Below, in pieces: positions 1-33,581 of a stretch of 33,581 bases of DNA. The stretch lies in IMG/VR virus record IMGVR_UViG_3300046368_001116, positions 1 to 33,581 of that record; one strand, 5' to 3'. The translations under genes and the position numbers were made by a program. The notes beneath the pieces were generated by a model. It made no database searches. It saw only the letters and a list, made by a program, of their open reading frames with translations, and was not told the DNA's origin. The stretch's first letter is position 1. Each line of letters starts with the position of its first letter. Source of the stretch: a virus. Its lineage: Duplodnaviria > Caudoviricetes.

Positions 1-1
1 G

Positions 2-2185
2 TTGGGTAATCTTATGCCCAGTCTAGACTATATGCATAAATCAGGAGGCATTATTTTACCTGATGGTTCGTTCATAAAAAAGCATACCGAGCATAACATA
101 GACTTATTTGACTGGATTGAAAATAATTCAAAACATCCATTTGCTGAGAAGATGAAAAAGGCAGAGGAGGACCACAATGAAAAGTATGGCGAGGAGGAAG
201 GTTTTCATGTCTTGGAAGCAGGTTTAAATGCAGGGGCAATTAGAGTCGCCAGGGATAGCCCAAATTCTAAAAATATTTACATTCAATCCAGTGGAGAAAT
301 TCCTGGCAGACTGAAGAGGGAATTAATTGACCAGGCTATGATGACAGGTGATACCTTGATCCAGGACCGAGGGCCACGGGAACAGATAATATTTGAACCT
401 GGTAACCCTGACATAAGGTTCATGCCTGCAACAGGGCAGAAGATGCAGACCAAGTTCCGTAGGGATGGATGGTTACTGGCAGATGGTGAATTTATTGATG
501 CACAATTTAATGACCATGATGGAACACTAAACACTTTTGTAAAAAAGAATCCTGATCATCCGTTCGCTAAAAAAGTAACTGCTATTGCAGAAGGAAAGGA
601 AAGAAGAACATCCAGGGGAACAAAAGTAAAACCTAAGAAATTTAGGGCATTTAGGGAAGACGGGATCCAGGCAGGGGCAATTAGAATTGCCAATCACGAA
701 AGAAATATTCACATCGAGGGTAAACCTAACAGGACCCAAAGGGAACTAATTGAAACACTTGCAGAGAATACTGGAAGAAAGGTTTTCACTGAAGATAGTA
801 TTTACTACAGACTGGGTGTTCCCCAGGAAGATGGTAAATTATTCTATGACCCTCCTGGTAACCCTGATATTAGGTTCATGCCCTTACTAAACCTGCCAGG
901 GGACAAGAGTGTGCAGTATAAGAAGAATAAGAACATTATTGATGTAGTGTTTAAGGATGCTACAGGGCTACAGGATAAGTTTGTAACAATGGTTGAAGCA
1001 GACAGGCATGATACTGATGGTGTTCGCATGGGTGGACCCTTACACGCATTCCTGAAGAGCAATGATGTAATTGTCACAATTGACGGGGTTGATTTTAGAC
1101 CCCAATGGGCAAACCTAAAGTGGTCTACAATTAAAGGTATGATTGAACGGGTTAAACTTACTGATGATGGTCATGCACTGATTCAGATAATGGAAAAGGA
1201 AACCCATCGTTCAAATAAAGATATGTTTTCCAGGGTGCTTGGGTCTTTCCAGGATAACAGGAAAAATATGTCTGTCCTGGAACGGGAAGTTACTGCCAAT
1301 ATTTTACGGATACTGAGGAAGAGGTTTACCAAAAGTAAACCTAATGCTCAGGAAAATGCCTTCCTGAAAGACATGACTCAGTATAAGACTAAACTTACAC
1401 GGGGTAATGTTGATGAAGCAAATAAGATACTTGCTGACATTAAAAAGAATTATGGAAAAACTAAATGGTGGAATGACAAGGAAGTAAAATCCTTTGCAAA
1501 AGATTTTACTAAAGCATTTACAGATTCATCTTTTAAGGCCAGGGCAGAAATAACTAGTTACTTTTTACCCAGGGATGAAAATTCTGCCAGGATGCCATTT
1601 ATTCCTGACATTAGAAAATTGCTAAAGTCTGAAATGGATTATCATGGGGCTAAGGCAGGGGATGTTGTGGGGGTTGTCCAATTATCTAAGCATAACCTAA
1701 ATAATAAGAAGAGGGTGTTTGGTGTTTATTTTGGTGATGACCCCAAAGAATTTGCTAGAATGACTGACAATGAAAAGTTAGCTAGAAAGAAATTACTTGC
1801 TAACAAGAAATTCAGGGCACACCCGTCTTACGATTGGTTAATGCTTGGTCCAGGTGATGCAGACTTTTTTATGTTTGATAAACCTAAGAATGCAGTGCAA
1901 ATGGCACCTGACTTTGCAAAGAACCATGCTAAGTTATGGAAACAGGATGTTGCTAAATTGAAGAGCGAAACAATTAAGAAGTATGGAACTACTAAACAGG
2001 ATCCTGAAGACTTTAGTGTTACCCCTGACATAAAACAACGGACTGAAAGGTTTAAAGGCATTGATAAATTCCTAAAGGAAAGTAGTAAAAAACCATTGTA
2101 TGATCAGTCAGAATCTAATATACAAGGTGCTATGCTAAGAGGGCATAAACGGGGTGTTCCACAACTTACCCAATTCTTAAAATGA
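2..2185 (+). CDS. C-terminal part of a large multidomain (polyvalent/ejection-like) phage protein, 5'-truncated
   Basis: 727-aa ORF open from the window edge; two ~150-aa related modules, each ending in PGNPDIRFMP, resembling DIRF/YS linkers of phage polyvalent proteins. Confidence 0.6.
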   Translation: MGNLMPSLDYMHKSGGIILPDGSFIKKHTEHNIDLFDWIENNSKHPFAEKMKKAEEDHNEKYGEEEGFHVLEAGLNAGAIRVARDSPNSKNIYIQSSGEIPGRLKRELIDQAMMTGDTLIQDRGPREQIIFEPGNPDIRFMPATGQKMQTKFRRDGWLLADGEFIDAQFNDHDGTLNTFVKKNPDHPFAKKVTAIAEGKERRTSRGTKVKPKKFRAFREDGIQAGAIRIANHERNIHIEGKPNRTQRELIETLAENTGRKVFTEDSIYYRLGVPQEDGKLFYDPPGNPDIRFMPLLNLPGDKSVQYKKNKNIIDVVFKDATGLQDKFVTMVEADRHDTDGVRMGGPLHAFLKSNDVIVTIDGVDFRPQWANLKWSTIKGMIERVKLTDDGHALIQIMEKETHRSNKDMFSRVLGSFQDNRKNMSVLEREVTANILRILRKRFTKSKPNAQENAFLKDMTQYKTKLTRGNVDEANKILADIKKNYGKTKWWNDKEVKSFAKDFTKAFTDSSFKARAEITSYFLPRDENSARMPFIPDIRKLLKSEMDYHGAKAGDVVGVVQLSKHNLNNKKRVFGVYFGDDPKEFARMTDNEKLARKKLLANKKFRAHPSYDWLMLGPGDADFFMFDKPKNAVQMAPDFAKNHAKLWKQDVAKLKSETIKKYGTTKQDPEDFSVTPDIKQRTERFKGIDKFLKESSKKPLYDQSESNIQGAMLRGHKRGVPQLTQFLK

Positions 2186-2421
2186 AACTCCATAAAATAA
2201 TTCTTACAGACGAAACAATTGACATACCAGGTTACGAGGAAAGACCCTGGAATGATCTTACTTTTTTCTTCGATCCAACCAGGGCAAGTGTTGAAGAAGT
2301 TGAAGAATTGGTAAGGCTAACTGAAGAGGATAATGTGGAGGAAAATGACAACCTGGAAACAATCAGGAGGAAGTGTGATTGGTTCCCTGACACCAGTGCT
2401 TTGGATCTGTCAGAAAGCTGA
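2182..2421 (+). CDS. acidic hypothetical protein
   Basis: 79 aa; ATGA overlap with the upstream stop. Confidence 0.7.
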   Translation: MKLHKIILTDETIDIPGYEERPWNDLTFFFDPTRASVEEVEELVRLTEEDNVEENDNLETIRRKCDWFPDTSALDLSES

Positions 2422-2426
2422 CAGAT
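2405..2426. terminator. perfect hairpin ATCTGTCAG-AAAG-CTGACAGAT over the stop codon
   Basis: 9-bp perfect inverted repeat; no U-tract, so the function is uncertain. Confidence 0.4.
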
Positions 2427-2428
2427 AA

Positions 2429-2456
2429 TGTCCACTCCTGTCCACTCTTGTCCACT
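2429..2456 (+). repeat. 3x TGTCCACT at 10-bp period, putative integrase arm-type sites
   Basis: copies at 2429, 2439 and 2449, about 55 bp from the att core. Confidence 0.65.
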
Positions 2457-2509
2457 TAAACCCCTGATGAAACCTACAAACCCTCTGTTTGACAGGGGTT
2501 GAACCTTCT

Positions 2510-2547
2510 TTAAAAGGCCACTGCTCTACCGATTGAGCTACCGACCC
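2510..2547 (-). other. attP: 5' half (nt 1-38) of tRNA-Lys(UUU)
   Basis: reverse complement GGGTCGG TA GCTC AATCGGTA GAGC A GTGGC CTTTTAA fits tRNA numbering 1-38 with anticodon TTT; similarity stops at the end of the anticodon loop; integrase ~1 kb away. Confidence 0.85.
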
Positions 2548-2558
2548 ATCTCTGTTGG

Positions 2559-2571
2559 AACCAACGACTTG
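2559..2571 (+). promoter_or_regulatory. IHF-like site
   Basis: AACCAACGACTTG vs consensus WATCAANNNNTTR, one mismatch, next to the att core. Confidence 0.35.
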
Positions 2572-2603
2572 TGCCATTTTGAAAAACTTTTATTAAAAAA
2601 GTT

Positions 2604-2620
2604 TGTCAATTCAGTTGACA
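2604..2620. promoter_or_regulatory. back-to-back -35 boxes TGTCAA-N5-TTGACA (divergent promoters or operator)
   Basis: two perfect TTGACA in inverted orientation; no canonical -10 at 17 bp on either side. Confidence 0.4.
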
Positions 2621-2704
2621 GAAGGGCAGATATATCTGACACTTTGTCTGACAGAGGGCATTGGTCCAATTTAAATAACATAACCCACATATACCAAAAA
2701 AACT

Positions 2705-2980
2705 ATGAGCGACAATCTTAAAAATAAATTTACAATTAATGCTATTGCAGACTTTCAAAAAACATTCAGTGAGGAAGTTATTGGGGACCATGAAACTCAA
2801 CTTGAAATGGGTGAAACTGAAGCTACTTATTTGACTGGACTAAACTGGGGGTTGAGAATTGCAAAACAACTTTTAGAAGGCGAAAACCATTTGTTAGTTG
2901 AGAGAGAAACTACTCGCATGAAAACAAGAATATACGAGGCAGTAAAAAGAAACGAAGCTAAAGCCCCTTGTTCCATATAA
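2705..2980 (+). CDS. hypothetical early protein
   Basis: 91 aa, starts MSDNLK within a repeated leader. Confidence 0.75.
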   Translation: MSDNLKNKFTINAIADFQKTFSEEVIGDHETQLEMGETEATYLTGLNWGLRIAKQLLEGENHLLVERETTRMKTRIYEAVKRNEAKAPCSI

Positions 2981-3004
2981 TCTAACCCCCCAACTTTAAA
3001 AACT

Positions 3005-3301
3005 ATGAGCGACAATCTTAAAATTACTACCCTGGAGTCAGTTGGCTCAGGGATTGATACTAACGGAATGGTGTTCCCTCAGAACACTGATGACACATTT
3101 GACCTGGAAGATCCCATTTCCATATTCCAATGCACTGAAGAATTTCTTACTTCATTGTCCAGGGAAGATAAGGACAAGATTATTGATGTTCTTAATGACC
3201 ATGATTCCAACCTTGCGAGACAATTTCCTGATTATCAGAGAACCTGGTTCTTCTTAGCAGGGGGATTAATCCAACCCGTTGAGTCCTTTTCCCAACTTTA
3301 A
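3005..3301 (+). CDS. hypothetical early protein
   Basis: 98 aa, starts MSDNLK within a repeated leader. Confidence 0.75.
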   Translation: MSDNLKITTLESVGSGIDTNGMVFPQNTDDTFDLEDPISIFQCTEEFLTSLSREDKDKIIDVLNDHDSNLARQFPDYQRTWFFLAGGLIQPVESFSQL

Positions 3302-3306
3302 AAACT

Positions 3307-3564
3307 ATGAACATATTAGTAAAACCCTTCAAAACCCCTAATGGACCAAGGTGGATCCTCTTTACAGGAAATGACAAGACCATGTTTCTAAATGCTACAG
3401 GTGAACCTGTTTCCCTGGTGAGCGAAAATGTAAAAATTTGCACAACCAGGGCAGAGGCAAATCGTCATGCTTTAGAATTGGCAAAAGTTGTTTCGATAAA
3501 ATCAATTAAGTCCGATTATAACGGGTCACTACAAGATATTTACTACAAAAACTCAAAAAACTAA
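3307..3564 (+). CDS. hypothetical early protein
   Basis: 85 aa, repeated leader, TAATG coupling to the integrase. Confidence 0.75.
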   Translation: MNILVKPFKTPNGPRWILFTGNDKTMFLNATGEPVSLVSENVKICTTRAEANRHALELAKVVSIKSIKSDYNGSLQDIYYKNSKN

Positions 3565-4874
3565 TGACTACTTGGCAAGCAAAATTACAACCCCGTCTCA
3601 TCGGGAATTATTGGTCAATCCAGGGTTCCGTCCCCGTTTTAGGACGGGTACGGAAACAATACCCTGATCAAGAAACTGCAAACCTGGAATCTGAGAAGAT
3701 GATTACCCAGGTGAGTAATAAAATTGCAGGGGCAGAGATTCGTGAAACCCTGCTTACCAAGAGTGAGGAAGCAGATGCTCACACTGCATTGAAGATCCTT
3801 CAATCAAGTCCTGATATGCAAGGGTTAAACTTAACTGGTCTTTTAAATTGGGCAGTTTCTAATTATCGTGACGAGGCAAGCGAGAGAACTATCGAGGTTG
3901 CAAGTAAGGAATACATTGCCGAATTGGGGACCCTGAAAAGGTCCAAGACCCATATTGACGGGGTCACAAACAAACTAACCAAGTTAGCTAATTGGTTCCC
4001 TGGTAAAAAAGTTTCAGAGTTTACACCTGAGAACATTCGCCAATGGATTAGTGACACAAAGGGTGACTACGGGCCATTTGCAGGCAGGGTTGTTTCCAGG
4101 ACCACTAGGACCAACGAACGCACAAAATTGAAAGCTTTTTTTAATTGGTGTAAGGCAAGAAAATACCTGCAAGAAACTCCAGTAGATGATTCAGTAAAAT
4201 CACCAGGCATTCAACGGGCAGAAATTATCGCCCTGGATATTGACCAGGTAAAAACTTTTATGACCATAGTAGATAGTCTACCCAAGCATTTAAGGGACGA
4301 GGCAGTGCCTTACTTTGCCCTGTCATTATTTGCAGGCCTTCGTCCCCAGGAGTTAAGGCCCGTTGATGGTAGCAATGGAGTTGACTGGTCAGACTTTACC
4401 TGGAGAAAGAAGGAAAGTACCCTGGTCATCAGTTACGAAGTGGGCAAAGTTACTTCCAGGAGGGTTATCAAACTGCCTGACAATTGTGTTGCCTGGGTAA
4501 AACCTTTTGCCAAGGAGTCAGGACCCGTTGTGGCATCCTCTTACGCATCCTGGAGAGGCATTAAGGATTATGTTAGGGCCAGGGCAGGGTATAAAGTTTA
4601 CGGAAAGCATTTCACCCATATTGACTATGATTTATCAAAGGTATCAAATGATGAGTCCCGTCCAAAGTATGTTGCAGATGTGCTACGGCACACTGCCATT
4701 AGTTATTACCTGGAATCTAATGACAATAACAAGGACCTGGTTGCCAATTGGGCAGGTAATTCAAGTAAAGTTATTGATGAGCATTATCGCTCATTGATTA
4801 AAGGTACTAAAGAAATATCACCATCAAAGATGGTTGAAATATTTTGGTCTATTAAACCTATGCGAACCAAATAA
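3564..4874 (+). CDS. int: tyrosine recombinase / phage integrase
   Basis: core-binding LKAFFNWC; LFAGLRPQEL, DVLRHTAISY, AGNS and HYR motifs. Confidence 0.92.
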   Translation: MTTWQAKLQPRLIGNYWSIQGSVPVLGRVRKQYPDQETANLESEKMITQVSNKIAGAEIRETLLTKSEEADAHTALKILQSSPDMQGLNLTGLLNWAVSNYRDEASERTIEVASKEYIAELGTLKRSKTHIDGVTNKLTKLANWFPGKKVSEFTPENIRQWISDTKGDYGPFAGRVVSRTTRTNERTKLKAFFNWCKARKYLQETPVDDSVKSPGIQRAEIIALDIDQVKTFMTIVDSLPKHLRDEAVPYFALSLFAGLRPQELRPVDGSNGVDWSDFTWRKKESTLVISYEVGKVTSRRVIKLPDNCVAWVKPFAKESGPVVASSYASWRGIKDYVRARAGYKVYGKHFTHIDYDLSKVSNDESRPKYVADVLRHTAISYYLESNDNNKDLVANWAGNSSKVIDEHYRSLIKGTKEISPSKMVEIFWSIKPMRTK

Positions 4875-4929
4875 CCTATGATACAATAATGGCAGATTTA
4901 ATTTAATTTAGTCATTAAGTTTCCTTTCT

Positions 4930-5327: not shown

Positions 5328-5548
5328 TAGTCCAGGCAATCTATTGATTCAATGATAACGGCAGGGCCTGCAATAGGAACCCCTGCCAGGGCAGATGCTT
5401 CCTTGTTAGGCATCTTGCCCTTCAGCTTGGCATCTTCGTCAACAATCAATTGATTCCCGTTGCCCAGGGCAACCAGTGTAATATACCCTCCCACTTTTTT
5501 CTGCAGTGCTTCCAGGGTAGTTTTTTCTTTTATAATTTCTATACTCAT
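5327..5548 (-). CDS. DUF3846-like phage protein
   Basis: LEALQKKVGGYI...IVDEDAKLKG..N..AS...IAGPAVI pattern. Confidence 0.75.
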   Translation of the reverse strand: MSIEIIKEKTTLEALQKKVGGYITLVALGNGNQLIVDEDAKLKGKMPNKEASALAGVPIAGPAVIIESIDCLD

Positions 5549-5742
5549 AATCTTTTTTTGTAGTTCAATTCATTAATTAATTTTTTAACATCCAGTGACC
5601 TGTAACGAATGGATCTGCCAATCTTTATGCAGGGCAACCTGCCTGCCTGCTCCCATCTTCTGATTGTCCTGGTGCAGACTCCTAATAAGTCTGCAACCTG
5701 GACCCTTCTCATTAAAATGGGTTCTAACTTAATTCCCTCCAT
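5545..5742 (-). CDS. excisionase-like HTH (HTH_17/MerR-type)
   Basis: VADLLGVCTRTIRRWEQAGRLPCIKIGRSIRY. Confidence 0.85.
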   Translation of the reverse strand: MEGIKLEPILMRRVQVADLLGVCTRTIRRWEQAGRLPCIKIGRSIRYRSLDVKKLINELNYKKRL

Positions 5743-9834: not shown

Positions 9835-9836
9835 AA

Positions 9837-12630: not shown

Positions 12631-14292
12631 ATGGCACTTGATTGGTCCCCACATCCAATATTAAAAATTCCAACCCAGGAGGAGCAGATCCAAATGGGTG
12701 CTGAAAAGTTGATAGAATATTGGGAGAGGAGAGAGGGTGCTATTGAGCGAGAACGGGAAGACCCTTTTCGATATGGTACAGAATTACCACACTGGAAAAA
12801 GGTGGATAAAATCCTGGAAGAAAAGGCAGAATTGTTACTGCTTGGTGGTAATCGTTCATCGAAAACCGAGGCAATTGCGAAGAGGGTAGTTAACTCCCTG
12901 GTAGCAAACCCTGGCAGTGTTATATGGTGCTTTACTGCTACCAGTCAAAATAGCATAGCGAATCAGCAGGCAGTGGTGCATAAGTACCTACCTGCTGAAT
13001 TTAAGAACCTGGGCAGAAGTAGGGTTCATTATGTCTCCTATTCGCAGAAGAACGGGTATACTTCCAGTAGTTTCATTTTACCCAACCGAAGCACCTGCGT
13101 ATTCCGTAACTGGTCCCAAAACATTGAGACTATTGAGGGGGGTGAAGTGGGTTGTAAGGACCAGGTAAAACCTGGAACACATAATATTGGGGTATGGTTT
13201 GACGAAGAGGTGCCCCAAAATTTCTTAAATACTGCTAGGTATAGGTGTTTATCCAGGGCCGATCCTAAAACAGGGATCCCTGCCAGGGTGATCAGTACAT
13301 TTACAACCATTTCAGGATGGACCAATGTGGTTGCTAGTTTTCTATCAGGAGCAGTTACCCTGGAAGACAAGGAAGCAGAATTATTACCTGGAGAACGGGT
13401 CCCGATTGTACAACAACCTGTACGCAAAAACGCACAGATATTATATTTCCATACGGCAGACAACCCTTACGGGGGTTGGCCTGCCATGAAAATGCAGTTG
13501 GAAGGGGCCAGACGGGATGAAGTTTTGACCAGGGCTTATGGATTACCGACTAAACCCAGTAACACCACTTTCGTTAACCTGGACGACAGGGTAGTCAAGA
13601 AGCACGAAGATATACCCTGCATAAAGGATAAAAAGAATAACCCCTGCCAGTATATACTGAGCATTGACCCTGCAGGCAGTAAATCCTGGTTTATGATCCT
13701 GGTTGCAGTTGATGTGTTTGGAGTACACTGGGTTTTAAAGGAGTGGCCTGGTGTAGATGTTGGAGAATGGGCAGATCTTGACAGGGGTGAGAAGGGTGTT
13801 CCAGGAGATGCTTCTAAACCAAATGGCAACGGAATCGGGGATTATGCCAAGATCATCAGAGATATGCTCAAGGGCATATCTGATGATGAAATACTGGGTT
13901 GCACTGATGATGTGGAAATAATTATTGACCCCAGGATGGGATCTGCAACCTATGCTAAAAGCGAGGGGACCAGTAACATAATTAGTGACTTACAGGACCA
14001 TAATATAAATGTTTACCCTGCTGAAGGGTTACCTATTGAAGATGGATTGCAGGCAATCAATTCGCTTTTATCTTATGACAAAAGCAAACCAATTGACCTG
14101 GTAAACAAACCCAGGTTGTTCTTTTCCGACCAGGTTGGAAACACCCTATTCTGTTGTATGAACTACAAGATTGATGATGGTTTGAAGGGGGTCTGCAAAG
14201 ATCCACCTGATTGCCTGAGATATGTTGCCATAGGAAATTATTCTTACCTGGAAGACTCAGAATTACGAATAACCGAATCGGGAGGATACTAA
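12631..14292 (+). CDS. terL: terminase large subunit
   Basis: GGNRSSKT Walker A, WFDEE Walker B, TFT coupling motif, SIDP nuclease motif, KDPPDCLRY. Confidence 0.93.
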   Translation: MALDWSPHPILKIPTQEEQIQMGAEKLIEYWERREGAIEREREDPFRYGTELPHWKKVDKILEEKAELLLLGGNRSSKTEAIAKRVVNSLVANPGSVIWCFTATSQNSIANQQAVVHKYLPAEFKNLGRSRVHYVSYSQKNGYTSSSFILPNRSTCVFRNWSQNIETIEGGEVGCKDQVKPGTHNIGVWFDEEVPQNFLNTARYRCLSRADPKTGIPARVISTFTTISGWTNVVASFLSGAVTLEDKEAELLPGERVPIVQQPVRKNAQILYFHTADNPYGGWPAMKMQLEGARRDEVLTRAYGLPTKPSNTTFVNLDDRVVKKHEDIPCIKDKKNNPCQYILSIDPAGSKSWFMILVAVDVFGVHWVLKEWPGVDVGEWADLDRGEKGVPGDASKPNGNGIGDYAKIIRDMLKGISDDEILGCTDDVEIIIDPRMGSATYAKSEGTSNIISDLQDHNINVYPAEGLPIEDGLQAINSLLSYDKSKPIDLVNKPRLFFSDQVGNTLFCCMNYKIDDGLKGVCKDPPDCLRYVAIGNYSYLEDSELRITESGGY

Positions 14293-14804
14293 TGCATAAA
14301 ATAATTATTGAACCCAACGAGATTGAACACCTGCTTATTATTTCAACCCTCCGTGCTTCGCATAACAGGTCAGTAAAAAGGCCTAGCATGACCATAGCAA
14401 AAAGTTTGCAGGGGTGCATTGGAGAATTGGCTTTTGCTAAGTTTTTTAATTTCTTCCCTGACTTTACCTGGGAAACCAGGACACACACTGGGACCAGTTC
14501 AAAATGGTATGATTTTCGATTAAACAACGGGAAGACTTTCGATGTAAAAACCAGTGACAAAGAAACCTTTGCCATTAACCAACAGGCAACCACTTTGAAG
14601 AACCAACCTGACTATTATGCCTTTGTGCAAACTGCTCAGGTTGACCTGGCAAAACAGATAAAAGAACAGGAGGCAATTATTCATGGTTACACTACCTTGA
14701 AACATCTCCAGTCCAAGGGGTTTGTCTCTCATTCAGGAGTGACCCCTTTTTACCTGGTAAAAAAGTCAAACATAAAACCACTAACAAAAAAGCAATATGG
14801 TTAA
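14292..14804 (+). CDS. PD-(D/E)XK-like endonuclease
   Basis: GCIGELAFAK...YD...FDVKT; TAATG-coupled to terL. Confidence 0.6.
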   Translation: MHKIIIEPNEIEHLLIISTLRASHNRSVKRPSMTIAKSLQGCIGELAFAKFFNFFPDFTWETRTHTGTSSKWYDFRLNNGKTFDVKTSDKETFAINQQATTLKNQPDYYAFVQTAQVDLAKQIKEQEAIIHGYTTLKHLQSKGFVSHSGVTPFYLVKKSNIKPLTKKQYG

Positions 14805-18854: not shown

Positions 18855-19928
18855 ATGGCACAAGCAACTTCATATTCACTAGGTGATCGACCATCCGTAA
18901 GGGGTGCTAGAGAATCCTTAGACAACACACTTCGCAGAACTGCAGTAGAATCAACACCTATGTTCGCAATGCTCTCCAGGGGTCCATCAGCAAAAGCAAT
19001 GCTTTCTGAATGGATGGTAGATGACCTTTCCGAGGTTTCTTTTCCTGGTGTTGCAGATGGAAAACCACTCGCATTCGGGGGTGACTTTGTAGACAAAACA
19101 ACCGAGCGATGCCGTTTTGCAAATCGCATTCAACAATTGCAAAGAACTTTCAGCGTTTCTCCTCAAGCAGAGGCAGTAGATGTTGCAGGTCCTTCAGGGC
19201 TTTATGCACAAAGTAAAGCACGGGCACTTATCGAGTTAAAACGAGATTGTGAAGCTTTAATCTGCTCCGATAGTGAAATGGCAGTATCTGCTATCCCTGC
19301 ACCAATTGGAGGTGTGGCACAACCTCGCACAGGTGATAAACTTGGTGCTTTAGGTGCCTGGACAAACCCTACCAACAACACTGCAAATGGTGTTTATGGG
19401 TCTGTCCTTCAACAGGGTTATCGTTCAGTAGCAGGTTCAAGGTTTGATATGACAGGAAATGGTGGAGTAATGACTGAAGATGATCTTCGTGGATTACTGC
19501 AATCAATATTTGAACAGAGTGGATCTGCAACTAGTTACAAATTAATCGGAGGACCTTCCGTTTTAAATCAGATTGCTGACATGACGAGAACCAACGTTGG
19601 TGGAGGTTCCCCTTCGTACCAGTTGACTCAAAATGTTGGTGATGGGGTACTCAAATTGCAGGTCCAAGAGTATATTTCTGACTGGGGCCGAGTATACTTG
19701 GTGCCGACCTTACTTAATGGTAGAACTTCAGGAAATGCATTAAATAACGCTTCTCGTAGTCGAGCGTACATCATTCCTTCTGACAATCACATTACTCTTC
19801 GTTTCCTTGAAGGTATTCGTTCGATTGACCTTGAGGACATTGATGGAGCAGGTAAACGAGGATTGGTTCGCACAATGTTCACCATGACTCCTACCAGTGC
19901 AGGCCGACCCCTTGGTTCAATAATTTAA
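18855..19928 (+). CDS. major capsid protein (SU10/DUF5309-like)
   Basis: RESL, TPM, EWMVDDL, NRIQ, ELKRDCE, YISDWG motifs; followed by a terminator. Confidence 0.88.
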   Translation: MAQATSYSLGDRPSVRGARESLDNTLRRTAVESTPMFAMLSRGPSAKAMLSEWMVDDLSEVSFPGVADGKPLAFGGDFVDKTTERCRFANRIQQLQRTFSVSPQAEAVDVAGPSGLYAQSKARALIELKRDCEALICSDSEMAVSAIPAPIGGVAQPRTGDKLGALGAWTNPTNNTANGVYGSVLQQGYRSVAGSRFDMTGNGGVMTEDDLRGLLQSIFEQSGSATSYKLIGGPSVLNQIADMTRTNVGGGSPSYQLTQNVGDGVLKLQVQEYISDWGRVYLVPTLLNGRTSGNALNNASRSRAYIIPSDNHITLRFLEGIRSIDLEDIDGAGKRGLVRTMFTMTPTSAGRPLGSII

Positions 19929-22797: not shown

Positions 22798-23085
22798 ATG
22801 CCAAATGTCAAAATTACAGAACTACCTGCCATTGGTGACCTGGATATTACCAACGATGATATTTTCCCAGTTGTGGATGCTCCAAATGGAGGGGTCCCAG
22901 TTACAAAAAAACTATCTGTTGCAAAGCTATTTAACACTGCACCAGTGAAGAGCGTGGCAGGCAAAACGAATGGTGACATTACCCTGGATTCTAGTGACCT
23001 GGATAACACTGCAGACATTACCCATTATTCTGACTTGGGTGATTTTGAACTATTTAAGCAAACATTTAATAATACGATAATATGA
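22798..23085 (+). CDS. small tail-associated protein
   Basis: MPNVKITELP, TKK, PVKSVAGKT motifs typical of tail-fibre segments. Confidence 0.6.
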   Translation: MPNVKITELPAIGDLDITNDDIFPVVDAPNGGVPVTKKLSVAKLFNTAPVKSVAGKTNGDITLDSSDLDNTADITHYSDLGDFELFKQTFNNTII

Positions 23086-26000
23086 AGATTTTAGAAAAAG
23101 TGGCAGGCCTTATCGGTCTTGAATTTAATGCAGTACGAGTAAGCTTAGGTAATGTTCAAAATATATCTAACTTGGCAATGCCCAGGGCAGAAGCAGAAGC
23201 AGAATTTGCGACCCAGGTAAGTTTAGGCACTTATACAAAATCAGCAGATATTTTAATCAGTCACTACACTAAAACCCAGGCCAATAATTTATTCAGTACC
23301 CAAGTATCTTTAAATTCAGGATTAGGGGACCGATATACAAAATCAGAAAGTGTTGCCCTATTTGCCGACAAAAATAACCTGGCAAATAATTATACTAACA
23401 CCACAACCCTGGTTGAGAATTATGCAACTAAGGCAAGTCTTGGTGCGATAGGGGAACAATTAGTTAGTCTTTCAGCATCGATATTTAGTGTTAATCATGT
23501 TTCAGGGGATTCAATGGACCTTTCGGGTAATCTCTCAATCGGGGGTACATTTACTGCCGTTGGTGATGCCAGGGCACAAAATGTTTCGGCCCTGGCACAA
23601 CTCTCAGGCATGAGGGCAGAGTTTGGAGATGCTACTAGTCAAGCCAATGGCACAAATATCATTGATGTTAAAGGGGGTGCAAACATCCAGGGTAAATTAG
23701 TTGTTTCTTCACTCGATGTGAAGGGAACAACTAACATTGTAAACACAACTAGTGTTGAAGTTTCTGACAATTTTATAGAATTAAATAAAGCTCAAGACGG
23801 GAGTGTAACTGCAAGTGAGGCAGGCATTACAATCAACAGGGGACTAGTTCAGGATGGTGTTGACGGGAATGGTGACCCAGTAATGGTGGAGGCCGATGAT
23901 GCCAAATTACATTTTAATAATGTTACAGGAAAGTGGTCCTTAACTAATGATGGTCTTGCCCTGGCAGAATTAAGTGTTGGAAAGATTTACTCTTCCAATT
24001 CATTTGCAAATTTAGCAGGTTTTCCTCTCGCAAGTTCATTCCCAGGAATGGTTGCAATCGCAGTTGATACTAAAATAAATTACATTTCTTCAGGAACTAC
24101 TTGGGTAGCAATTGCAACACAAGCGAATCTCGATTCAAGCATAAACAACCTGGGCACTTTTGCTGAGTTTCAAGCTCAATTTCTTGGATCTTTGGATTCA
24201 GATGGTGATGGAATTTCAAATGCAAATGAGGATATTGACGGAGATAATATTCTTGATGGAGTGGATCCTGATCTAACTGATGGTCCCTTAGCAGATGCAG
24301 ACGGGGACGGGGTTATTAATTCCCTGGATGCATTTCCAAATGACCCAAATGAAACAACTGATACTGATGGAGACGGGGTAGGTGATAATGCTGACCCTGA
24401 CCCCAATGATGATAGTGTAACTGGGGATGCAGATAATGACGGGGTAGATGATTTAATAGATGCCTTCCCTAATGATGGAACAGAAGATACTGATTCAGAT
24501 GGGGATGGGGTAGGGGATAATGCAGATGCCTTCCCTAATGACGGAACAGAAGATACTGATTCAGATGGAGACGGGGTAGGTGATAATGCTGACCCTGACC
24601 CTAATGATAATAGTGTAACTGGAGTTGACTCAGATGGTGACGGGGCTGACGATGCAGTCGATGCATTCCCAAATAATCCAAATGAACAATTAGACACAGA
24701 TGGTGACGGGATAGGTAACAACGAAGATTCCCATCCTGACGATCCTAGTCAATCAGGAGTTGATGCAGATAATGACGGGATTGATGATGCAATAGATATA
24801 GACCCAACTGATCCATTAAGTTCGGGACAGGATGCAGACAACGATGGTATTGATGATGCATTGCAAAATTCGCCTGGTTATGACAAAGACGGAGATGGAA
24901 TAATTAATAGTCAAGATTCTCATCCTGACGATCCTAGTCAATCAGGAGTTGATGCAGATAATGACGGGGTTGATGATGCAATAGATATAGACCCAACTGA
25001 CAATACAAAATCAGGAGTAGATTCTGATAATGATGGGGTTGATGATGCAGTAGATTTATACCCAAATGACAATACACAATCAGGAGTAGACTCTGATAAT
25101 GATGGGATTGATGATGTAGTAGATACACACCCAAATGATAATACACAATCAGGGGTAGATGCTGATAACGATGGAGTTGACGATGCAGTAGATTCAGACC
25201 CATCAGTTAATGATAATTTTGTTGATGTAGATGGGGATGGGGTATGGGATAGTGTAGACTCCAATACAACCCCTGCAGGTCAACCTGGATCCGATACGAG
25301 TGTTAGTAGTACATTTATCGGGTGGGGGACAAGCGATCTAATGCTTGACCTTAGTCAAAGTAGTGGTCCTCACTACGCAAGAGAGTACCTGGCTCATATA
25401 TATGAGAATTTGGGTACATATTATTTGGGTCAAGGTTGGGACGATATTGCTATGGCCGAAAGTAAACGAGTTACGATACCAGGCCTGAGTAATTACTTCA
25501 TTACTGGTTTTGAGTATTCTCTTGCCACTTCAGATGACGGGCAAAGTGCAGGGCTTTTCGTCCACATTGTTAACGGAGATTTAGTGCTTCAAGTCCGAAA
25601 CGGGAATAAAGTTGGGTATAGAAAAATCTATGACTCAAGCACTCAGCAATTTGTAAACGGATTCTCACTCAGTAATTACGCATTTCTTGGAGGTGACCTT
25701 GCTAATCAGGGGTACATTAAAAGCTTTAACCTCAGTTACGATGTTACTAAAGTGCAGGATTCTGATGGTGATGCAATTAGTGATTTTGAGGATGCATTTC
25801 CAAATGACTCAACTGAACACCTGGATACGGATGGGGACGGGACAGGTAACAATGCAGATACGGACGATGATGGTGACGGGGTCCTAGACAATGTTGATAC
25901 TCATCCTTTGGATTCAACAAAGTCATCAGTTCCATTTGAAACTATAACGATGCAGAAAGTTGTAAGTGGATGGGCAGTTGGTGCCCCAACATTTACTCCC

Positions 26001-26351
26001 CTGGCCGATGAAATTGGTTACGAAACTACAACAGGATCCACTGACTATCCCTCCAAATATTATAAAACATATCAATTAGGTGATTTTACACTGGAGATAA
26101 CTTCTCTTCAAACAACCTTAACGAATGCAACCCTGGGGATTAATCAGGTCATTGCCACAGGGGTCCAACACCTTGAGGACTCTGCTCTCAGGGCATTAGG
26201 TATGTATAATGAATCAAGTCCAATTATGAGTGACCACTCAACTGCATCGTCAGCAATTGGAGGAGGGGATCTGGCTTCAATCACATTCCTTCCAACAGAA
26301 CCTAGTGTCATAAGTCATTATTATAATAAAATTATTTTAACATTAAACTAA
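23082..26351 (+). CDS. tail fibre/adhesin with thrombospondin type-3 Ca-binding repeats
   Basis: YTK repeats, VSDNFIELN..AGITINRG shaft motif, many DxDxDGxxDxxDxxP repeats. Confidence 0.8.
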   Translation: MKILEKVAGLIGLEFNAVRVSLGNVQNISNLAMPRAEAEAEFATQVSLGTYTKSADILISHYTKTQANNLFSTQVSLNSGLGDRYTKSESVALFADKNNLANNYTNTTTLVENYATKASLGAIGEQLVSLSASIFSVNHVSGDSMDLSGNLSIGGTFTAVGDARAQNVSALAQLSGMRAEFGDATSQANGTNIIDVKGGANIQGKLVVSSLDVKGTTNIVNTTSVEVSDNFIELNKAQDGSVTASEAGITINRGLVQDGVDGNGDPVMVEADDAKLHFNNVTGKWSLTNDGLALAELSVGKIYSSNSFANLAGFPLASSFPGMVAIAVDTKINYISSGTTWVAIATQANLDSSINNLGTFAEFQAQFLGSLDSDGDGISNANEDIDGDNILDGVDPDLTDGPLADADGDGVINSLDAFPNDPNETTDTDGDGVGDNADPDPNDDSVTGDADNDGVDDLIDAFPNDGTEDTDSDGDGVGDNADAFPNDGTEDTDSDGDGVGDNADPDPNDNSVTGVDSDGDGADDAVDAFPNNPNEQLDTDGDGIGNNEDSHPDDPSQSGVDADNDGIDDAIDIDPTDPLSSGQDADNDGIDDALQNSPGYDKDGDGIINSQDSHPDDPSQSGVDADNDGVDDAIDIDPTDNTKSGVDSDNDGVDDAVDLYPNDNTQSGVDSDNDGIDDVVDTHPNDNTQSGVDADNDGVDDAVDSDPSVNDNFVDVDGDGVWDSVDSNTTPAGQPGSDTSVSSTFIGWGTSDLMLDLSQSSGPHYAREYLAHIYENLGTYYLGQGWDDIAMAESKRVTIPGLSNYFITGFEYSLATSDDGQSAGLFVHIVNGDLVLQVRNGNKVGYRKIYDSSTQQFVNGFSLSNYAFLGGDLANQGYIKSFNLSYDVTKVQDSDGDAISDFEDAFPNDSTEHLDTDGDGTGNNADTDDDGDGVLDNVDTHPLDSTKSSVPFETITMQKVVSGWAVGAPTFTPLADEIGYETTTGSTDYPSKYYKTYQLGDFTLEITSLQTTLTNATLGINQVIATGVQHLEDSALRALGMYNESSPIMSDHSTASSAIGGGDLASITFLPTEPSVISHYYNKIILTLN
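24196..25260 (+). repeat. coding tandem repeats (TSP3-like)
   Basis: near-identical DNA blocks, e.g. ~24725-24810 vs ~24915-25000. Confidence 0.85.
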
Positions 26352-28278: not shown

Positions 28279-28427
28279 TGGACAGAACAACATTATTTGG
28301 CTTCAGTGGATGCCTGGCAACAATAACGCTTGGGTCATTTGATGAAATATTATCAATTTTAGCAGGGGTCTTAACCTGCACCTATATGGCAGTTAAAATA
28401 TATTTCTTAGCTAAGAATAAAAAATGA
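28278..28427 (+). CDS. holin-like small membrane protein
   Basis: 49 aa, hydrophobic segments and basic tail KNKK. Confidence 0.5.
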   Translation: MDRTTLFGFSGCLATITLGSFDEILSILAGVLTCTYMAVKIYFLAKNKK

Positions 28428-30214
28428 GATATAGAAGTTATGGTTCATATGATGATCAACCTATCCTAGACGGGGATGAGGGTTTTATGAACATGAATAC
28501 CATGACGGATCCCTCTCAATTGGAAAATGGTGTAGTTACTGAATCCAGGAACATGAGACTGACCAAAGGGGTTGCTGAATCACGAAAAGGGACCAGTCTT
28601 TACTTACCCCCTGCTTCAGCAAATGCAGTTGCCCAGGAAGGAATTTTGGATGCAATTGCAGTTGGTTTGGACGGGGTTGACGATGATGTTCTCATAGCAA
28701 CCAACACCAAGGCTTTTAAGTGTAACGAACAGGGGCATTCATTAATTTCATACCCGTTCAATTTCCCCAGGGTGCAAAGTGCTTTTTTATTAGATACCAG
28801 GGTAAATACTTTAATGTTTTCAGATCCTGGTCCTACTCTTCCTTTTACCCTGGATGCTACCCTAGGTAATTCAGTTTTACGATTGGCAGACGGGGAAAGT
28901 GAATTTAAGCACTGGAAACAGGTCAGTGCCACGCAAATAACTTATTCAGCAACAGGGACCCATTCGGTCACATTGTCTCAAAATACTGACCTGAAGATTG
29001 GTGAGAAAATCAAAATTGTAAACGGAGCAGGGTTCAGTAATTTTGCCTGGGAAGTTTCAAATGTGGGAGATAAATCAATTGAGATAACAAGCACTGACAA
29101 TTCAGTAAAAAGCAACCTGGCAGACAGGGTTGCTAATATGTATTTATATTCACTGGCAGACCAATGCCCCCCTGCCTATTTTGCGACCTGGGCAGGCAAC
29201 CGATTAGTTGTCCCCGTTGGAGTTGATGAACTGGCAATCAGTTCACCATTATCCACACATGATTTTCCAGTTACCAATAAGTTAGTAATTGGCAGTGGCG
29301 AAAGTGGTGACATTCAGGCCCTGGAACCATTAGCAGATGATGGATTGATTTGTTTTAAAAATCACTCCATTCATATAATAACTGGGGTATATGAAATGAA
29401 AGGTGCTTCCGAGGGAGGCAGACTGGCAATAACCAGGGTAACCGACCAACTGGGTTGCACTGCCAGGGACTCGATTCAGGTAATTGGTGATGAAGTTATT
29501 TTTCTATCCCCCCAGGGCATTTATGGCCTGACCCTAAATGCCAAAGGGGCAGGGGGTGTAGGTTTACCACCACAAGCAGTTCGTGTATCAGATGTGCCAC
29601 TTTCAAAAAATATCAATGATCACATTGAGTCATTTGACCAGGACAAATCAAGTGCCTGTTTTCATCGGGGAAAGTATTATATATTTAATGGTTCGGAGAT
29701 TTTTGTTTACTCAACCTTAACTCAAGGTTGGGAGTCAATTGACTCAGTGCCTGTAGGGGCACTGAAGTTAATTTCTATAAATAACCAAAAGGCCAGGTTG
29801 CTGATAATTCATAACACTTCCAGTATTTTAGAAGGTGAAGCAAATGAAATAGGCCAGGATGCTTCCCTGGGTCAGTCTGAGGATTTTGAATCCTTTATTA
29901 CCACTAGGGAATATCGATCAAATAGTTATGATAATAAACATTATCGCAGGGTTCAATTGTCCTGGGATGCAGTTGATGCAGAAAATAATTTTGAGGTTAC
30001 TGCAAACACGAATAACCCTGATACCACAAACAAGGTAATTGATTACCAGGGTAATAATTTAGTTGCCCAGGGTAATTATTCTACCAGGGCAAACCTTCGT
30101 TCAAGGGGTGAATCAATTTCATTAAAAATCAGCAATAATAACCTGGGGAGAATCAAAGTTAAAAGAGTGCTTGTCGAAGCATCGGGTGGATCCAGGGGAA
30201 ACAACAAACTTTAA
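28424..30214 (+). CDS. tail nozzle / DNA-stabilisation protein (P22 gp10-like)
   Basis: 596 aa, beta-propeller-like; LGCTARDSIQVIGDEVIFLS..GIY. Confidence 0.7.
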   Translation: MRYRSYGSYDDQPILDGDEGFMNMNTMTDPSQLENGVVTESRNMRLTKGVAESRKGTSLYLPPASANAVAQEGILDAIAVGLDGVDDDVLIATNTKAFKCNEQGHSLISYPFNFPRVQSAFLLDTRVNTLMFSDPGPTLPFTLDATLGNSVLRLADGESEFKHWKQVSATQITYSATGTHSVTLSQNTDLKIGEKIKIVNGAGFSNFAWEVSNVGDKSIEITSTDNSVKSNLADRVANMYLYSLADQCPPAYFATWAGNRLVVPVGVDELAISSPLSTHDFPVTNKLVIGSGESGDIQALEPLADDGLICFKNHSIHIITGVYEMKGASEGGRLAITRVTDQLGCTARDSIQVIGDEVIFLSPQGIYGLTLNAKGAGGVGLPPQAVRVSDVPLSKNINDHIESFDQDKSSACFHRGKYYIFNGSEIFVYSTLTQGWESIDSVPVGALKLISINNQKARLLIIHNTSSILEGEANEIGQDASLGQSEDFESFITTREYRSNSYDNKHYRRVQLSWDAVDAENNFEVTANTNNPDTTNKVIDYQGNNLVAQGNYSTRANLRSRGESISLKISNNNLGRIKVKRVLVEASGGSRGNNKL

Positions 30215-30216
30215 AA

Positions 30217-30585
30217 ATGGGCAATATAATTCCAGGGACAACATTTGTTAATGGTCAACTAGTCACTGCTAGTGACCTTAACAATCAACTTGAAAACGCA
30301 ACTATAAATTCTGATGTGATTACACCAGGAATGCTCAACTCAACTTTGATTACGGGGAATAGCGAATTGGAAGAACTTGATGTGAAGGACGAAGATTTTT
30401 TCTTGGTTTGGTCATCAGTCAATAATGCATTTCGTAAAGTTAGAAAAGGTTTCATCGGCTCAGGTTCAGGTTCATCGGGGGGAAGTGCGTTTACTTTATC
30501 AGGGACCACTTTAACCATGACAAGTGGTGGAACAGGAACTGCAACATTTTCATTATCGGGTTCAACATTGACCATTACAACATGA
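30217..30585 (+). CDS. small tail protein
   Basis: GTTFVNGQLVTASDLN; two F.LSG.TLT repeats. Confidence 0.65.
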   Translation: MGNIIPGTTFVNGQLVTASDLNNQLENATINSDVITPGMLNSTLITGNSELEELDVKDEDFFLVWSSVNNAFRKVRKGFIGSGSGSSGGSAFTLSGTTLTMTSGGTGTATFSLSGSTLTITT

Positions 30586-32090
30586 CCACACAAACCACAA
30601 ATCTAGCATCCGTTGATTCTATAGATTACAACGGAGCAAATGTTGAAACTGCCATAATGGACGGGACCACAATTTGGGCCAAAATTGACGGGGTTGCTTA
30701 TTATATAGGCCAAACAATTTGGGTTAATGGAGTAGAGAAAACAATAACATCATTGTCAGGAGGATTAATATTCTTTGAGGGTGGAGGATCTACTGGATCT
30801 GTTGACCCTACTGATGGATCCGTATCAGAGACGGACCCAGGGACAGGTGACAATTCAGGTGACAACTCAGGTGACAATTCGGGTGACAATTCGGGTGACA
30901 ATTCGGGTGGAACAGGTGCCCCAAGTGCAGACGATATTGATGGTGACGGGATCCCAAATTCGTCCGATACAGACAATGCAAATAATCATATTTATTCTGA
31001 GCTTAGAAAGGGCTATTCAAATGTAAATGCATTTGCTAATATTAATCCTGATGTTGATTCAGAGGAACTAATAACTGGTTTCCGTACTGATCGGACAGGT
31101 TTTGTTGGTGGGGGGCACGATACTTCATTTTACGCATCGGACGGAATTATTAGAGGTGTAAATGCGTATGCCGATAATTCGGATAATGTAAGAAGAAATG
31201 AAGTTATTCTCACATTAAAAGATCTGCTCTATGGAAGTAATGGTTATACTTCAGATTGGTTAATGGTGCAGATTATTGACTCAAGTGATAATGCAGGCAT
31301 TACAACCACATTAAAATTAAACAAGACTGAAGATCATTTAAATTTTTGGAGGGGGCATTCATGGCATTCAGACCAGTTGAGTGCTTATGATGCACAAAAT
31401 GATAATTTATACGGGGCTTCAGTGCTTGGAAATTCAGGGCAAACTGGACCTAATGCAACATATACTGGTGGATTAGGTTCCAACTTTGCAGGCAGATGCT
31501 TTTTCGTAAACATTGCATCAAGTATCCCTGATGAATTAAGAATTAAATTTGTAGGAGCAAATTCCTTTAGTGCTTTGCAGTACATGGGAGGCATTTCTTA
31601 TATTAGTGTTAAATTGTTAAAGGCTCAACTGACAGGTTTGGAAAACAACCCAGGACTTGGAATTTACAGATCCTCAACGGATACGCACAAATCCAGTTAC
31701 TACGATGTGGTCCATAACTATGGAATATTTAATGGAATTGGGTCAAATGGAGGTTATACCATGACTATGGGCGATAGTTTGCAACCTTTCAAATTAGGCA
31801 GTAGCACACCAGGTGAAAAACTTACAATTGGTAAAATTTATTATGTATCCCCTGCAGGGAACAACAAATGGTACTTAGCCCAACTTTACATGATGGTAAA
31901 CTGGGTTAAAACCAATGACCAACCGACCTTTATAACTCAAGCACGATTTGAACCGATCAAGACTTATTCGGAAATGCCAAACACTGGAATCCTGGAGGTA
32001 AATGGGGCCAATGAAAAAACGGACAGAATAGGTCCCCTAGATTCATCGGGGATGCCAACAATGCCTGCAGGTGGAGTAGAGGGAGTATAA
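30582..32090 (+). CDS. putative tail/adhesin protein
   Basis: 502 aa; GDNS linker repeat and one DIDGDG motif. Confidence 0.6.
   Translation: MTTQTTNLASVDSIDYNGANVETAIMDGTTIWAKIDGVAYYIGQTIWVNGVEKTITSLSGGLIFFEGGGSTGSVDPTDGSVSETDPGTGDNSGDNSGDNSGDNSGDNSGGTGAPSADDIDGDGIPNSSDTDNANNHIYSELRKGYSNVNAFANINPDVDSEELITGFRTDRTGFVGGGHDTSFYASDGIIRGVNAYADNSDNVRRNEVILTLKDLLYGSNGYTSDWLMVQIIDSSDNAGITTTLKLNKTEDHLNFWRGHSWHSDQLSAYDAQNDNLYGASVLGNSGQTGPNATYTGGLGSNFAGRCFFVNIASSIPDELRIKFVGANSFSALQYMGGISYISVKLLKAQLTGLENNPGLGIYRSSTDTHKSSYYDVVHNYGIFNGIGSNGGYTMTMGDSLQPFKLGSSTPGEKLTIGKIYYVSPAGNNKWYLAQLYMMVNWVKTNDQPTFITQARFEPIKTYSEMPNTGILEVNGANEKTDRIGPLDSSGMPTMPAGGVEGV
30846..30905 (+). repeat. 5x 12-bp tandem repeat GGTGACAAYTCR (GDNS)
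   Basis: read directly from the sequence. Confidence 0.9.
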
Positions 32091-33581
32091 TGCCCACACC
32101 TGCTCAAGCTTATTTAAACCTATCTGCCAATATGGGCAGGGGGTCAACTGCATCAGGAGTTTCTTCTGACAAGGGTGCTGAGAAATTTATAAACAATACT
32201 GCAACGGCAGGTGCTTTAGGAGCAACTGCCGTTTTCCCTGCAGTGGTCAACAACATGAGTTATGCAAATGACTATGTAAACTTGACCAAGAGTGTAAACA
32301 AAGTTGGCCAGGCAGGTGCCGTTTATTCAAGTTATAAAACTGCTTTGGGGTTGGCAGGTCCCCAGGGATCCGAGCAAATGGGGAATACATTTTCTCCAGG
32401 TAATTTAATGAGAGCAGGGGTTGAAACTGCTTCTTATTTAAATCCAGTTACGGGTGTTTTAAATGCAGTCAATTCAATGACCAAAAATGAACAGAACCCC
32501 CAGGGTACTTTACCTGGTGTAAGTTATGTCCAGGGGAAGGTTGATCAGTTTGGCAATGCATTGAATGACACAAAGGTTGGTAACTTCATGTCAAACACTG
32601 CCCAGGCATTTCACGAGAATTTTATCAGTCCTGTTCTTCAAACTCGTCCAGGGCAAATACTAACAAGTGTTGCAGGGATCCCAATGGGGGCAGTAGAGAG
32701 TGGGTATAATGCATTGCGTGAAGGTTACCAGGGTTTGGACAGAAACTTCTTTGGGGGTTACCTTCCAGGGGGAGCAAAGGATGGTGATGCAGAGACTCAG
32801 AGGTGGGACAACCCCCTGCGTCCACTCAATGAATCGCTTGACCATTTTGGCAATACTTTAAGGAATGATCAGAGGCAACCCGAAGCGATTGTTGTCCCAG
32901 GTGGACCAGTTAATAATTCTTCCCCAAACGCAGAAGCATTATTTAATGACATGGTTATTGACGGGAAAGTTTACACTGCTGAGGAAATTCAAGACACAAG
33001 ACAAAATCCAAATTTCAAGCAAGATGCAGTTCGCAACTTGGATGCATTAGCAACATATGCTCAAAGTGTAGGCATTGATATGGAATCAACTCGATCAGGG
33101 GAGCAAAATGTTATTTCCGATGACCCTAAAACATTTTCAAAATTAGTAGGAACAAATGCGAGTTATACGGACTCTAATGATAACTTAGTAGTAGCAGGTT
33201 GGTTCACAACTGCCAGACCCGATAAAATTGATTTTGAATTAGAATATAAGAGTGTTGAGGGTTATGAAACCTACTACAAAAAAGGAACAAACATACCTTT
33301 TGAGTACACCAGGGAATTTGGGGAAATGTATGGTAGTCTAAATGACAATCAAGTTACTGAATTTTTTAATGATATGTCAGGTTCCGAGAAGGGTGATTGG
33401 TATAAAGGGGACGAGGGTCATCGGATGAGATTCGATAACGCTAATTATAGTCCCCTCCATTCTAAATCACCCTGGCAACATCGTGACATTTTTAAAAATG
33501 CTAGTGCATCTGCAAACACTGATGCCGAGTATTTAAATAATTTAAAGGCAGGTTGGGGTGACGGGGGCGATGGGTGGAACG
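32090..33581 (+). CDS. 3'-truncated large protein, possibly an internal virion protein (not in the ORF track)
   Basis: TAATG-coupled start MPTPAQAYLNLS; frame stays open to the window end (~497 codons). Confidence 0.8.
   Translation, partial: MPTPAQAYLNLSANMGRGSTASGVSSDKGAEKFINNTATAGALGATAVFPAVVNNMSYANDYVNLTKSVNKVGQAGAVYSSYKTALGLAGPQGSEQMGNTFSPGNLMRAGVETASYLNPVTGVLNAVNSMTKNEQNPQGTLPGVSYVQGKVDQFGNALNDTKVGNFMSNTAQAFHENFISPVLQTRPGQILTSVAGIPMGAVESGYNALREGYQGLDRNFFGGYLPGGAKDGDAETQRWDNPLRPLNESLDHFGNTLRNDQRQPEAIVVPGGPVNNSSPNAEALFNDMVIDGKVYTAEEIQDTRQNPNFKQDAVRNLDALATYAQSVGIDMESTRSGEQNVISDDPKTFSKLVGTNASYTDSNDNLVVAGWFTTARPDKIDFELEYKSVEGYETYYKKGTNIPFEYTREFGEMYGSLNDNQVTEFFNDMSGSEKGDWYKGDEGHRMRFDNANYSPLHSKSPWQHRDIFKNASASANTDAEYLNNLKAGWGDGGDGWN

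Follow-up and report, generated by a model that had tools for sequence, protein, structure and literature searches.

Double-stranded DNA phages are known to lose restriction sites from their genomes, and the words that are then absent beyond chance are described as short, mostly palindromic and of Type II-like form (Rusinov et al. 2018, PMC6286503; Koulouras & Frith 2021, PMC8034619; Zarai et al. 2020, PMC7320823). According to the same papers, words absent from viruses can hint at unknown restriction motifs. Words of this kind are absent from the virus record IMGVR_UViG_3300046368_001116, the whole of which (33,581 bases, a partial genome with a CheckV completeness of 83%) is here called the window. 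In this phage the loss extends to the proteins: two dipeptides, Ala-Ala (AA) and Thr-Val (TV), are missing together with every DNA word by which they can be written, conserved AA and TV pairs have been replaced in the large terminase subunit, and different sets of words are missing from different related lineages.

Missing dipeptides and missing words

The genetic code obliges AA to be written with the word GCNGC and TV to be written with ACNGT. When dipeptides are counted in 47 genes chosen from the list of open reading frames (ORFs), with 10,845 amino acids in total, AA is found 0 times where 46.9 are expected (Poisson log10 p −20) and TV 0 times where 42.3 are expected (log10 p −18), in agreement with the initial annotation of the window, which had claimed that both pairs are absent from the proteome. 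Among all 400 dipeptides the one further zero is CW, with an expectation of 1.3, and the next lowest pair is IV (21 vs 40.6), so that a complete absence of many unrelated dipeptides is not seen. The pairs VT (49), AV (43), TA (51), AG (60), PG (62) and GP (29) are retained, as had also been claimed.

At the level of DNA, GCNGC occurs 0 times against about 40 expected and ACNGT 0 times against about 84, when the expectations are taken from a first-order Markov model. These zeros hold in every frame and on both strands. With the protein held fixed and its codons resampled, 31.7 copies of ACAGT or ACTGT are expected and 0 are seen. Since AA and TV can be written solely with the two purged words, the proteins have been substituted instead.

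GCNGC and ACNGT, on which the initial annotation had focused, are thus both purged, but they are two among many such words, and the rest had been overlooked. Further words with zero copies are GANNTC (114 expected), CCGG (52), RCATGY (31), GCGC (19), CGNCG (12) and CGCG (10), and likewise CCGC and VCAGC, while ACGT occurs once (position 19594) and CCAGA 8 times. Among six-base palindromes with an expectation of at least 3, 17 of 46 are absent, compared with 183 of 1,965 non-palindromic six-mers, which means that the avoided words are enriched for short palindromes. Among 40 variants listed of 74 population variants, 1 creates a core banned word by itself when 4.6 would be expected (p about 0.04), and for this variant a neighbouring change is listed in the same run.

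Seawater sequencing runs contain the phage, as found by a run-level match search. A 7.3-kb stretch that was compared is covered by contigs of four seawater runs from different studies, and one matching contig piece of 7,034 bases has 12 differences from the window. Since independent seawater contigs match the window, the pattern of word loss is not an assembly artefact. The remark in the initial annotation that no methyltransferase is visible also stands: PF00145 is found in 0 of 6 phage records and PF01555 and PF02086 in 0 of 4 each, so that none of the three Pfam families occurs in the window or its near-complete relatives. The related genome G002, with a completeness rating of 100%, is methylase-negative for the families searched.

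Replacement of conserved pairs and the order of loss

The loss can be read at the protein level in the following features, where the sites within the terminase are those identified as ancestral by alignment:

12631..14292, plus strand: terminase large subunit (TerL), homologues of which carry PF03237
12736-12741, plus strand: ancestral AA site in TerL, now GA
12970-12975, plus strand: ancestral AA site in TerL, now AV
13306-13311, plus strand: ancestral TV site in TerL, now TI
13327-13332, plus strand: ancestral TV site in TerL, now VV
13564-13569, plus strand: ancestral TV site in TerL, now TT
13810-13815, plus strand: ancestral AA site in TerL, now AS
13942-13947, plus strand: ancestral AA site in TerL, now SA
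18855..19928, plus strand: major capsid protein, SU10-type (PF17236)

The major capsid protein, with 32 Ala, 24 Thr and 23 Val, has 0 AA and 0 TV, and it contains the lone ACGT of the window. TerL was aligned with 114 of 120 listed homologues. AA is lacking from 20 of the 40 rows with an identity of at least 60%, from 1 of the 16 with 46-60% and from 1 of the 59 with less; for TV the corresponding numbers are 9 of 40, 1 of 16 and 39 of 59, so that the absence of TV in one distant protein carries little information. A quick tree by maximum likelihood was built from 78 rows, after exclusion of homologues outside 500-600 amino acids and of L114, which has an internal stop. Here the rows without AA form a clade of 23 (SH-aLRT 87) that sits within a set of rows with 4-7 AA, and another, separate group of 6 rows has 0-1 AA. 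The rows without TV form two groups, one of 5 rows that includes the window (support 100) and one of 10 rows (support 99); in neighbouring rows 1-4 TV are still present, so that TV would have been lost either once or twice in this tree.

There are five AA pairs that the 19 AA-rich rows conserve and that none of the 23 clade rows has retained, and among 359 control pairs only 14 show as complete a loss. At conserved positions, AA and TV have accordingly been substituted in the clade of the window, as an alignment of TerL to homologues, proposed in the initial annotation, could show. At the AA sites, the replacements over 168 cells in 28 AA-less rows, which count related rows rather than independent events, are SA 29, AS 25, GA 18, AL 11 and some further pairs, among which neither VA nor AT occurs. 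VA and AT are the products that deamination of 5-methylcytosine would give from GCNGC, and that they never appear points to selection, rather than decay of methylated cytosine, as the cause of GCNGC loss. At the TV sites the replacements are TI 30, TT 14, CV 8, VV 4, MV 3 and AT 1, and for ACNGT these would fit either selection or decay.

To see how the banned words differ between lineages, consider the relatives G001, G002 and G003. Observed and expected numbers are 0/51.8 for AA and 0/40.0 for TV in G001, and 0/58.0 and 0/44.4 in G002; G003 has AA 0/56.3 but TV 52/49.3, and it has kept ACNGT (145). The distant phage C75C1 has AA 76/78.1 and TV 39/51.1. GANNTC is absent from the window (0/114) and from G001 (0/97) and present in G002 and G003. 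G002 also retains CCGG, and it is without CCWGG, CCAG, AGCC, AGCT, GGNNCC and RGATCY, with GP at 10/44.8. L053, L054 and L069 lack both CCGG and CCWGG and have 0-1 GGNCC. As a separate observation, other relatives (L053, L054, L069; L013, L033, L036) have purged either CCNGG and GGNCC or almost every GGNCC, so that Pro-Gly or Gly-Pro would be lost.

Phages with about 50% TerL identity are mostly without GCWGC, ACGT, CCAGA and CGWCG, and they have kept GCSGC. In outgroup TerL genes (12 loci), the first codon is GCG or GCC in 40 of 44 AA pairs, and most of these loci have almost no GCWGC. AA, which survives there through GCS codons, probably died out once GCSGC was banned on top of GCWGC. The history would then probably have been stepwise, GCWGC first and GCSGC second, and not the work of a single Fnu4HI-type enzyme; the steps can be ordered on the tree as GCWGC, then GCSGC, then ACNGT. 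In lineages that tolerate ACCGC, TCCGC or ACAGC, the words GCAGC and GCCGC are still zero, from which it follows that the two halves of GCNGC are banned specifically.

Predicted host and origin of the purge

Head-tail block, replication block, integrase and excisionase-like gene make up the layout of the genome, and the features that bear on lifestyle, host and a possible nuclease are:

2510..2547, minus strand: attP-like core of 38 nucleotides, identical to the 5' half of host tRNA-Lys(TTT)
3564..4874, plus strand: tyrosine integrase (phrog_1, E 1e-20)
5545..5742, minus strand: excisionase-like helix-turn-helix protein (phrog_66, E 7e-11)
14292..14804, plus strand: DUF5843 protein with a PD-(D/E)XK-like motif

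Integrase, excisionase-like gene and a core matching a host tRNA are the features of a temperate phage, and the window is probably one that infects marine Opitutales. The core, which was spotted by eye, occurs as an exact 38-mer in 54 of 76 genomes in the family of G006, an Opitutales bacterium known from a metagenome-assembled genome (MAG). Of 201 genomes sampled across the phylum to which G006 belongs, G006 itself is the one that has it, and none of 201 from the phylum of G009 does. Neither ARAGORN nor Rfam detects RNA genes in the window. An alignment scan of GTDB genomes gave five TerL matches, on contigs of 7-44 kb; four of the five lie in Verrucomicrobiota bins, and three (G006, G008, G010) in the G006 family. 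None of 19 matches from a single-protein TerL pattern scan of genome contigs was confirmed. The core and the TerL homologues in MAG bins together point to the G006 family as host. The integrase homologues are 68% identical in G001, 52% in G002 and 43% (partial) in G003. Near the integrase, G001 carries the 5' half of a different tRNA (L038:15176-15213; anticodon TGT, Thr, as read by eye), and in G002 a whole tRNA-Lys(CTT) adjoins it (L040:9112-9187), so the attachment module appears to have been swapped among relatives.

C5 methylases occur in 73 of the 76 host-family genomes. Two types, one HhaI-like of about 325 amino acids and one of about 440, recur across the family, with housekeeping surroundings in the loci read (L130, L200-L224, L233-L236). 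Of the conserved types, one is a near match to M.HhaI (E 8e-106), which has GCGC as its site. Among 16 extra methylase regions, three have an NgoFVII/NgoAVII-type nuclease (G420, G442, G449) and one has DISARM genes (G446), so that pairs of C5 methylase and nuclease are scattered in the family. The nuclease of G420 matches R.NgoAVII (E 1e-30), for which the recognition site GCCGC is reported (PMC4267654), and by homology only it would fit GCSGC. In G406 (contig C50, L225:10225-13260), a C5 methylase and a convergent ORF of 295 amino acids, with no family match, lie directly beside a copy of the tRNA-Lys core, which suggests a restriction-modification (R-M) island at the integration site of the phage itself.

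Our preferred explanation, to which we assign a probability of roughly 0.78, is that R-M systems circulating in the predicted Opitutales hosts selected against every copy of the words, while the proteins took substitutions. R-M systems that vary between host strains would cut any unprotected site, a phage without a methylase of its own would survive by having zero sites, and where a dipeptide forces a word the protein sequence would have to change. That different lineages ban different words, as in G002 and G003, counts for this role of restriction. The initial annotation had proposed that a host defence forced amino-acid substitutions: the substitutions are there in TerL and their kinds fit selection, while restriction as the agent, with the enzymes involved, is what we infer.

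Several observations weigh against selection by restriction. Temperate phages are reported usually to eliminate fewer restriction sites (PMC6286503). TV is naturally rare in distant TerL proteins, and TI, its commonest replacement, is also a deamination product and partly ancestral. An integrated prophage was not observed: the top integrase match among 401 Opitutales genomes has 30% identity, and the flanks of the TerL contigs were not examined. In 20 pooled host regions (102,694 codons), ACGT (146/642) and GCGC (216/613), words also purged in the phage, are depleted in the host itself, while AA (552/603) and TV (283/308) are near expectation and GCWGC is not avoided. In the loci read, no nuclease neighbours the two conserved methylases, and ACGT and GCGC may therefore be sites of orphan methylases. 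No enzyme specific for GCWGC, ACNGT or GANNTC was identified in the host family. A search for the family of the GCNGC enzyme Bsp6I matched 0 of the 76 host genomes, but as its control was likewise silent this zero carries no weight. MAGs under-sample defence islands. Hiraoka et al. saw neither motifs nor methylases in five marine Verrucomicrobia MAGs, the family of which may differ from that of the host (PMC8919816).

Another cause that could remove methylatable words is methyl-directed restriction of Type IV or IIM, where a site that has been methylated by one host strain is cut once the phage enters another. It would account for elimination despite a lysogenic lifestyle, Mrr-like domains are present in 8 of the 76 host genomes, and the known enzymes include BlsI, with methylated GCNGC and ACNGT among its test substrates, and GlaI, which cuts R(5mC)GY (PMC13510852). 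When the sites of these enzymes are as broad as described, however, ACNGC/GCNGT (TA 51, AV 43) and ACGC (41) should not be tolerated as they are, and GANNTC and RCATGY do not fit, which makes this explanation improbable.

Still less credit is due to mutational decay, where host C5 methylases mark the words and deamination of 5-methylcytosine erodes them without selection by restriction. Such decay would be in line with the near ubiquity of C5 methylases in the host family, including the type near M.HhaI, with the 4- and 3-fold depletion of host ACGT and GCGC, and with CpG at 0.44 and CA/TG at 1.18 of expectation in the window. For GCNGC it is contradicted by the replacement of AA with SA, GA, AS and AL and never with VA or AT. 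Moreover, phage counts are exact zeros in several genomes of 33-43 kb, while 23-35% of ACGT and GCGC remain in the host. The contribution of decay may be limited to these two words.

A ban on AA and TV at the level of translation or protein, or a phage-encoded nuclease the sites of which the phage must lack, is hardly credible, since the words are missing also out of frame and on the other strand, which excludes a translational cause, host proteins use AA and TV normally, and the PD-(D/E)XK-like ORF that follows TerL in the window, G001, G002 and G003 could explain at most one of more than ten unrelated words.

This DUF5843 ORF has a conserved GE..F...D.K pattern, and its identity between lineages is just 27-34%, though TerL of the same lineages is about 63% identical. 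Its predicted fold (pLDDT 83) has no PDB matches at E≤0.001; the weak rows are nucleases, e.g., D212 and Hjc.

Excess of CCWGG and comparison with known systems

While so many words are purged, CCWGG, which the initial annotation overlooked, has 320 copies in the window, of which 319 lie in genes; at one per 105 bp the motif is close to saturation. The number expected in genes is about 90-95 from codon usage, 132 when 13 words are forbidden and 176 when 116 depleted words are penalised in a damped iterative avoidance model that converged; an undamped version diverged (expected CCAGG 150-249) and was discarded. With 319 against 176 in a model of avoidance only, spill-over from the bans explains less than half of the excess. 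Unmodelled weak bans could produce part of the pattern, and the rest of the excess is unexplained. CCWGG is enriched 3.5-5 times in the window, G001, G003, L012 and L273, with 3.5 times in the window phage. In G002 it is zero, and CCSGG is enriched instead (109/25).

The excess is accompanied by retention. Between the window and G001, 12 synonymous changes destroy CCWGG where 52 are expected, and in comparisons with L011, L007, L003 and L266, which share the window and so are not independent, the observed and expected numbers are 25/55, 10/27, 8/30 and 8/30. Control words in the G001 comparison are near expectation (CTNAG 18/15, TCNGA 7/6, GGWCC 8/8, CCAGT 10/12), and words that share CCTG are partly retained (GCAGG 6/17, TCAGG 6/14). 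Gains of CCWGG are not raised (4/4.3), and 22 one-step opportunities for gain are left. At the fixed positions both transitions and transversions are suppressed, while the W position toggles at the background rate (4/3.2, 8/5.8, 9/4.9). Among the 40 listed variants none destroys CCWGG, when 3.0 would be expected (p about 0.04). When fixed bases are kept and W is free, the pattern is that of selection on the motif and not of very short patch (VSP) repair. As a cause of the excess, VSP repair was rejected also on the grounds that transversions and the outer C are protected, that CTWGG occurs 84 times vs about 110, and that Vsr is found in 14 of the 76 host genomes.

The sites are clustered, with a coefficient of variation of 1.24 for their spacing, and their density is lowest in a variable region (23082-26351). 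This region encodes a protein of 1,089 amino acids without Pfam or PHROG matches and with long Asp-rich DxDxDG repeats, which we take to be calcium-binding-like. GGATCC co-varies with CCWGG and divides the window, G001, G003 and G002 in the same manner (observed/expected 25/9, 28/7, 25/5 and 55/11, and 0/11 in G002), and its retention is not clear (2/4.4, 5/5.0). In G003 (L043-L044) and L029, ACAGG, GCAGG and TCAGG are nearly absent and CCAGG is enriched 5 times; in the same genomes 74 of 76 CAGGG/CCCTG copies overlap CCWGG, and CCGG and GGCC are enriched 2.5 times. Shielding of rare depleted words by overlap with CCWGG was considered and rejected, the copies that overlap being 0 of 8 for CCAGA, 0 of 6 for CACAG, 0 of 4 for GCAGGA and 4 of 5 for GGATCA. 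As these words are mostly off CCWGG, the sequence of the window gives no general indication of Dcm-like blocking.

A possible, though doubtful, interpretation by analogy is that the phage deletes, even at the expense of amino acids, the words that restriction of unmethylated DNA can cut and is selected to hoard CCWGG, perhaps also GGATCC, for the host to methylate as a dense coat of "self". Such a coat could switch off a DISARM-like missing-self defence or block overlapping restriction sites, the sister lineage with no CCWGG would have made the opposite choice on a different host, and GANNTC would be a restriction specificity that is undescribed. Against hoarding speak the clustering of CCWGG and the single DISARM locus seen in 76 genomes.

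According to published descriptions, methylation represses DISARM, and CCWGG is the motif marked by the class 2 methylase of this system (PMC9142583; bioRxiv 10.1101/2021.12.28.474362). The likeness is that a phage that faces a defence repressed by methylation could gain from many methylated sites. The differences are that class 2 reportedly acts against modified phage too, and that the one locus in the host family (G446) is of class I type, with DrmD and DrmMI. At that locus (contig C9, L228:397-8595) DrmMI and DrmD are accompanied by a C5 methylase, with a DUF1998 gene on the same contig; DUF1998 occurs in 2 of the 76 genomes.

The HIP1 element of cyanobacteria (PMC13756078) offers another analogy, as CCWGG in the phage has both the over-representation and the conservation of fixed positions expected of a HIP1-like selected palindrome. 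HIP1, however, is described as a periodic 8-mer of the host with known methylases, whereas phage CCWGG is clustered, has no cognate methylase identified and is enriched far more in the phage than in the host regions (646/547). If the excess is functional, then it would represent an anti-defence strategy that is rarely considered, where sites are gained instead of lost.

A literature search with REBASE, subscription journals and supplements outside its scope gave no report of CCWGG hoarding in phages and none of dipeptide loss from restriction avoidance. For GANNTC as a restriction site there was likewise no report among the matches listed, which concern, by title, eukaryotic gene regulation or cancer, with REBASE again outside the search. 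Dipeptide loss is not treated in the available parts of PMC7320823 and PMC8034619, and amino acids are not mentioned in those of PMC6286503. From published site elimination the present purge differs in that it alters protein, involves more than ten words and occurs in a phage that bears an integrase, a class reported to eliminate fewer sites. Restriction would here have exerted enough pressure to alter conserved residues in an enzyme essential to the phage, and the phage is temperate, a lifestyle for which weak avoidance is expected from the literature. From the purged words one may then predict both the methylome and the defence systems of a marine Opitutales family that is uncultured, with GANNTC as a possibly new specificity. 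Avoidance of restriction sites is a known strategy, and what stands out against it is the extent of the purge at the protein level, its temperate carrier and the CCWGG signal.

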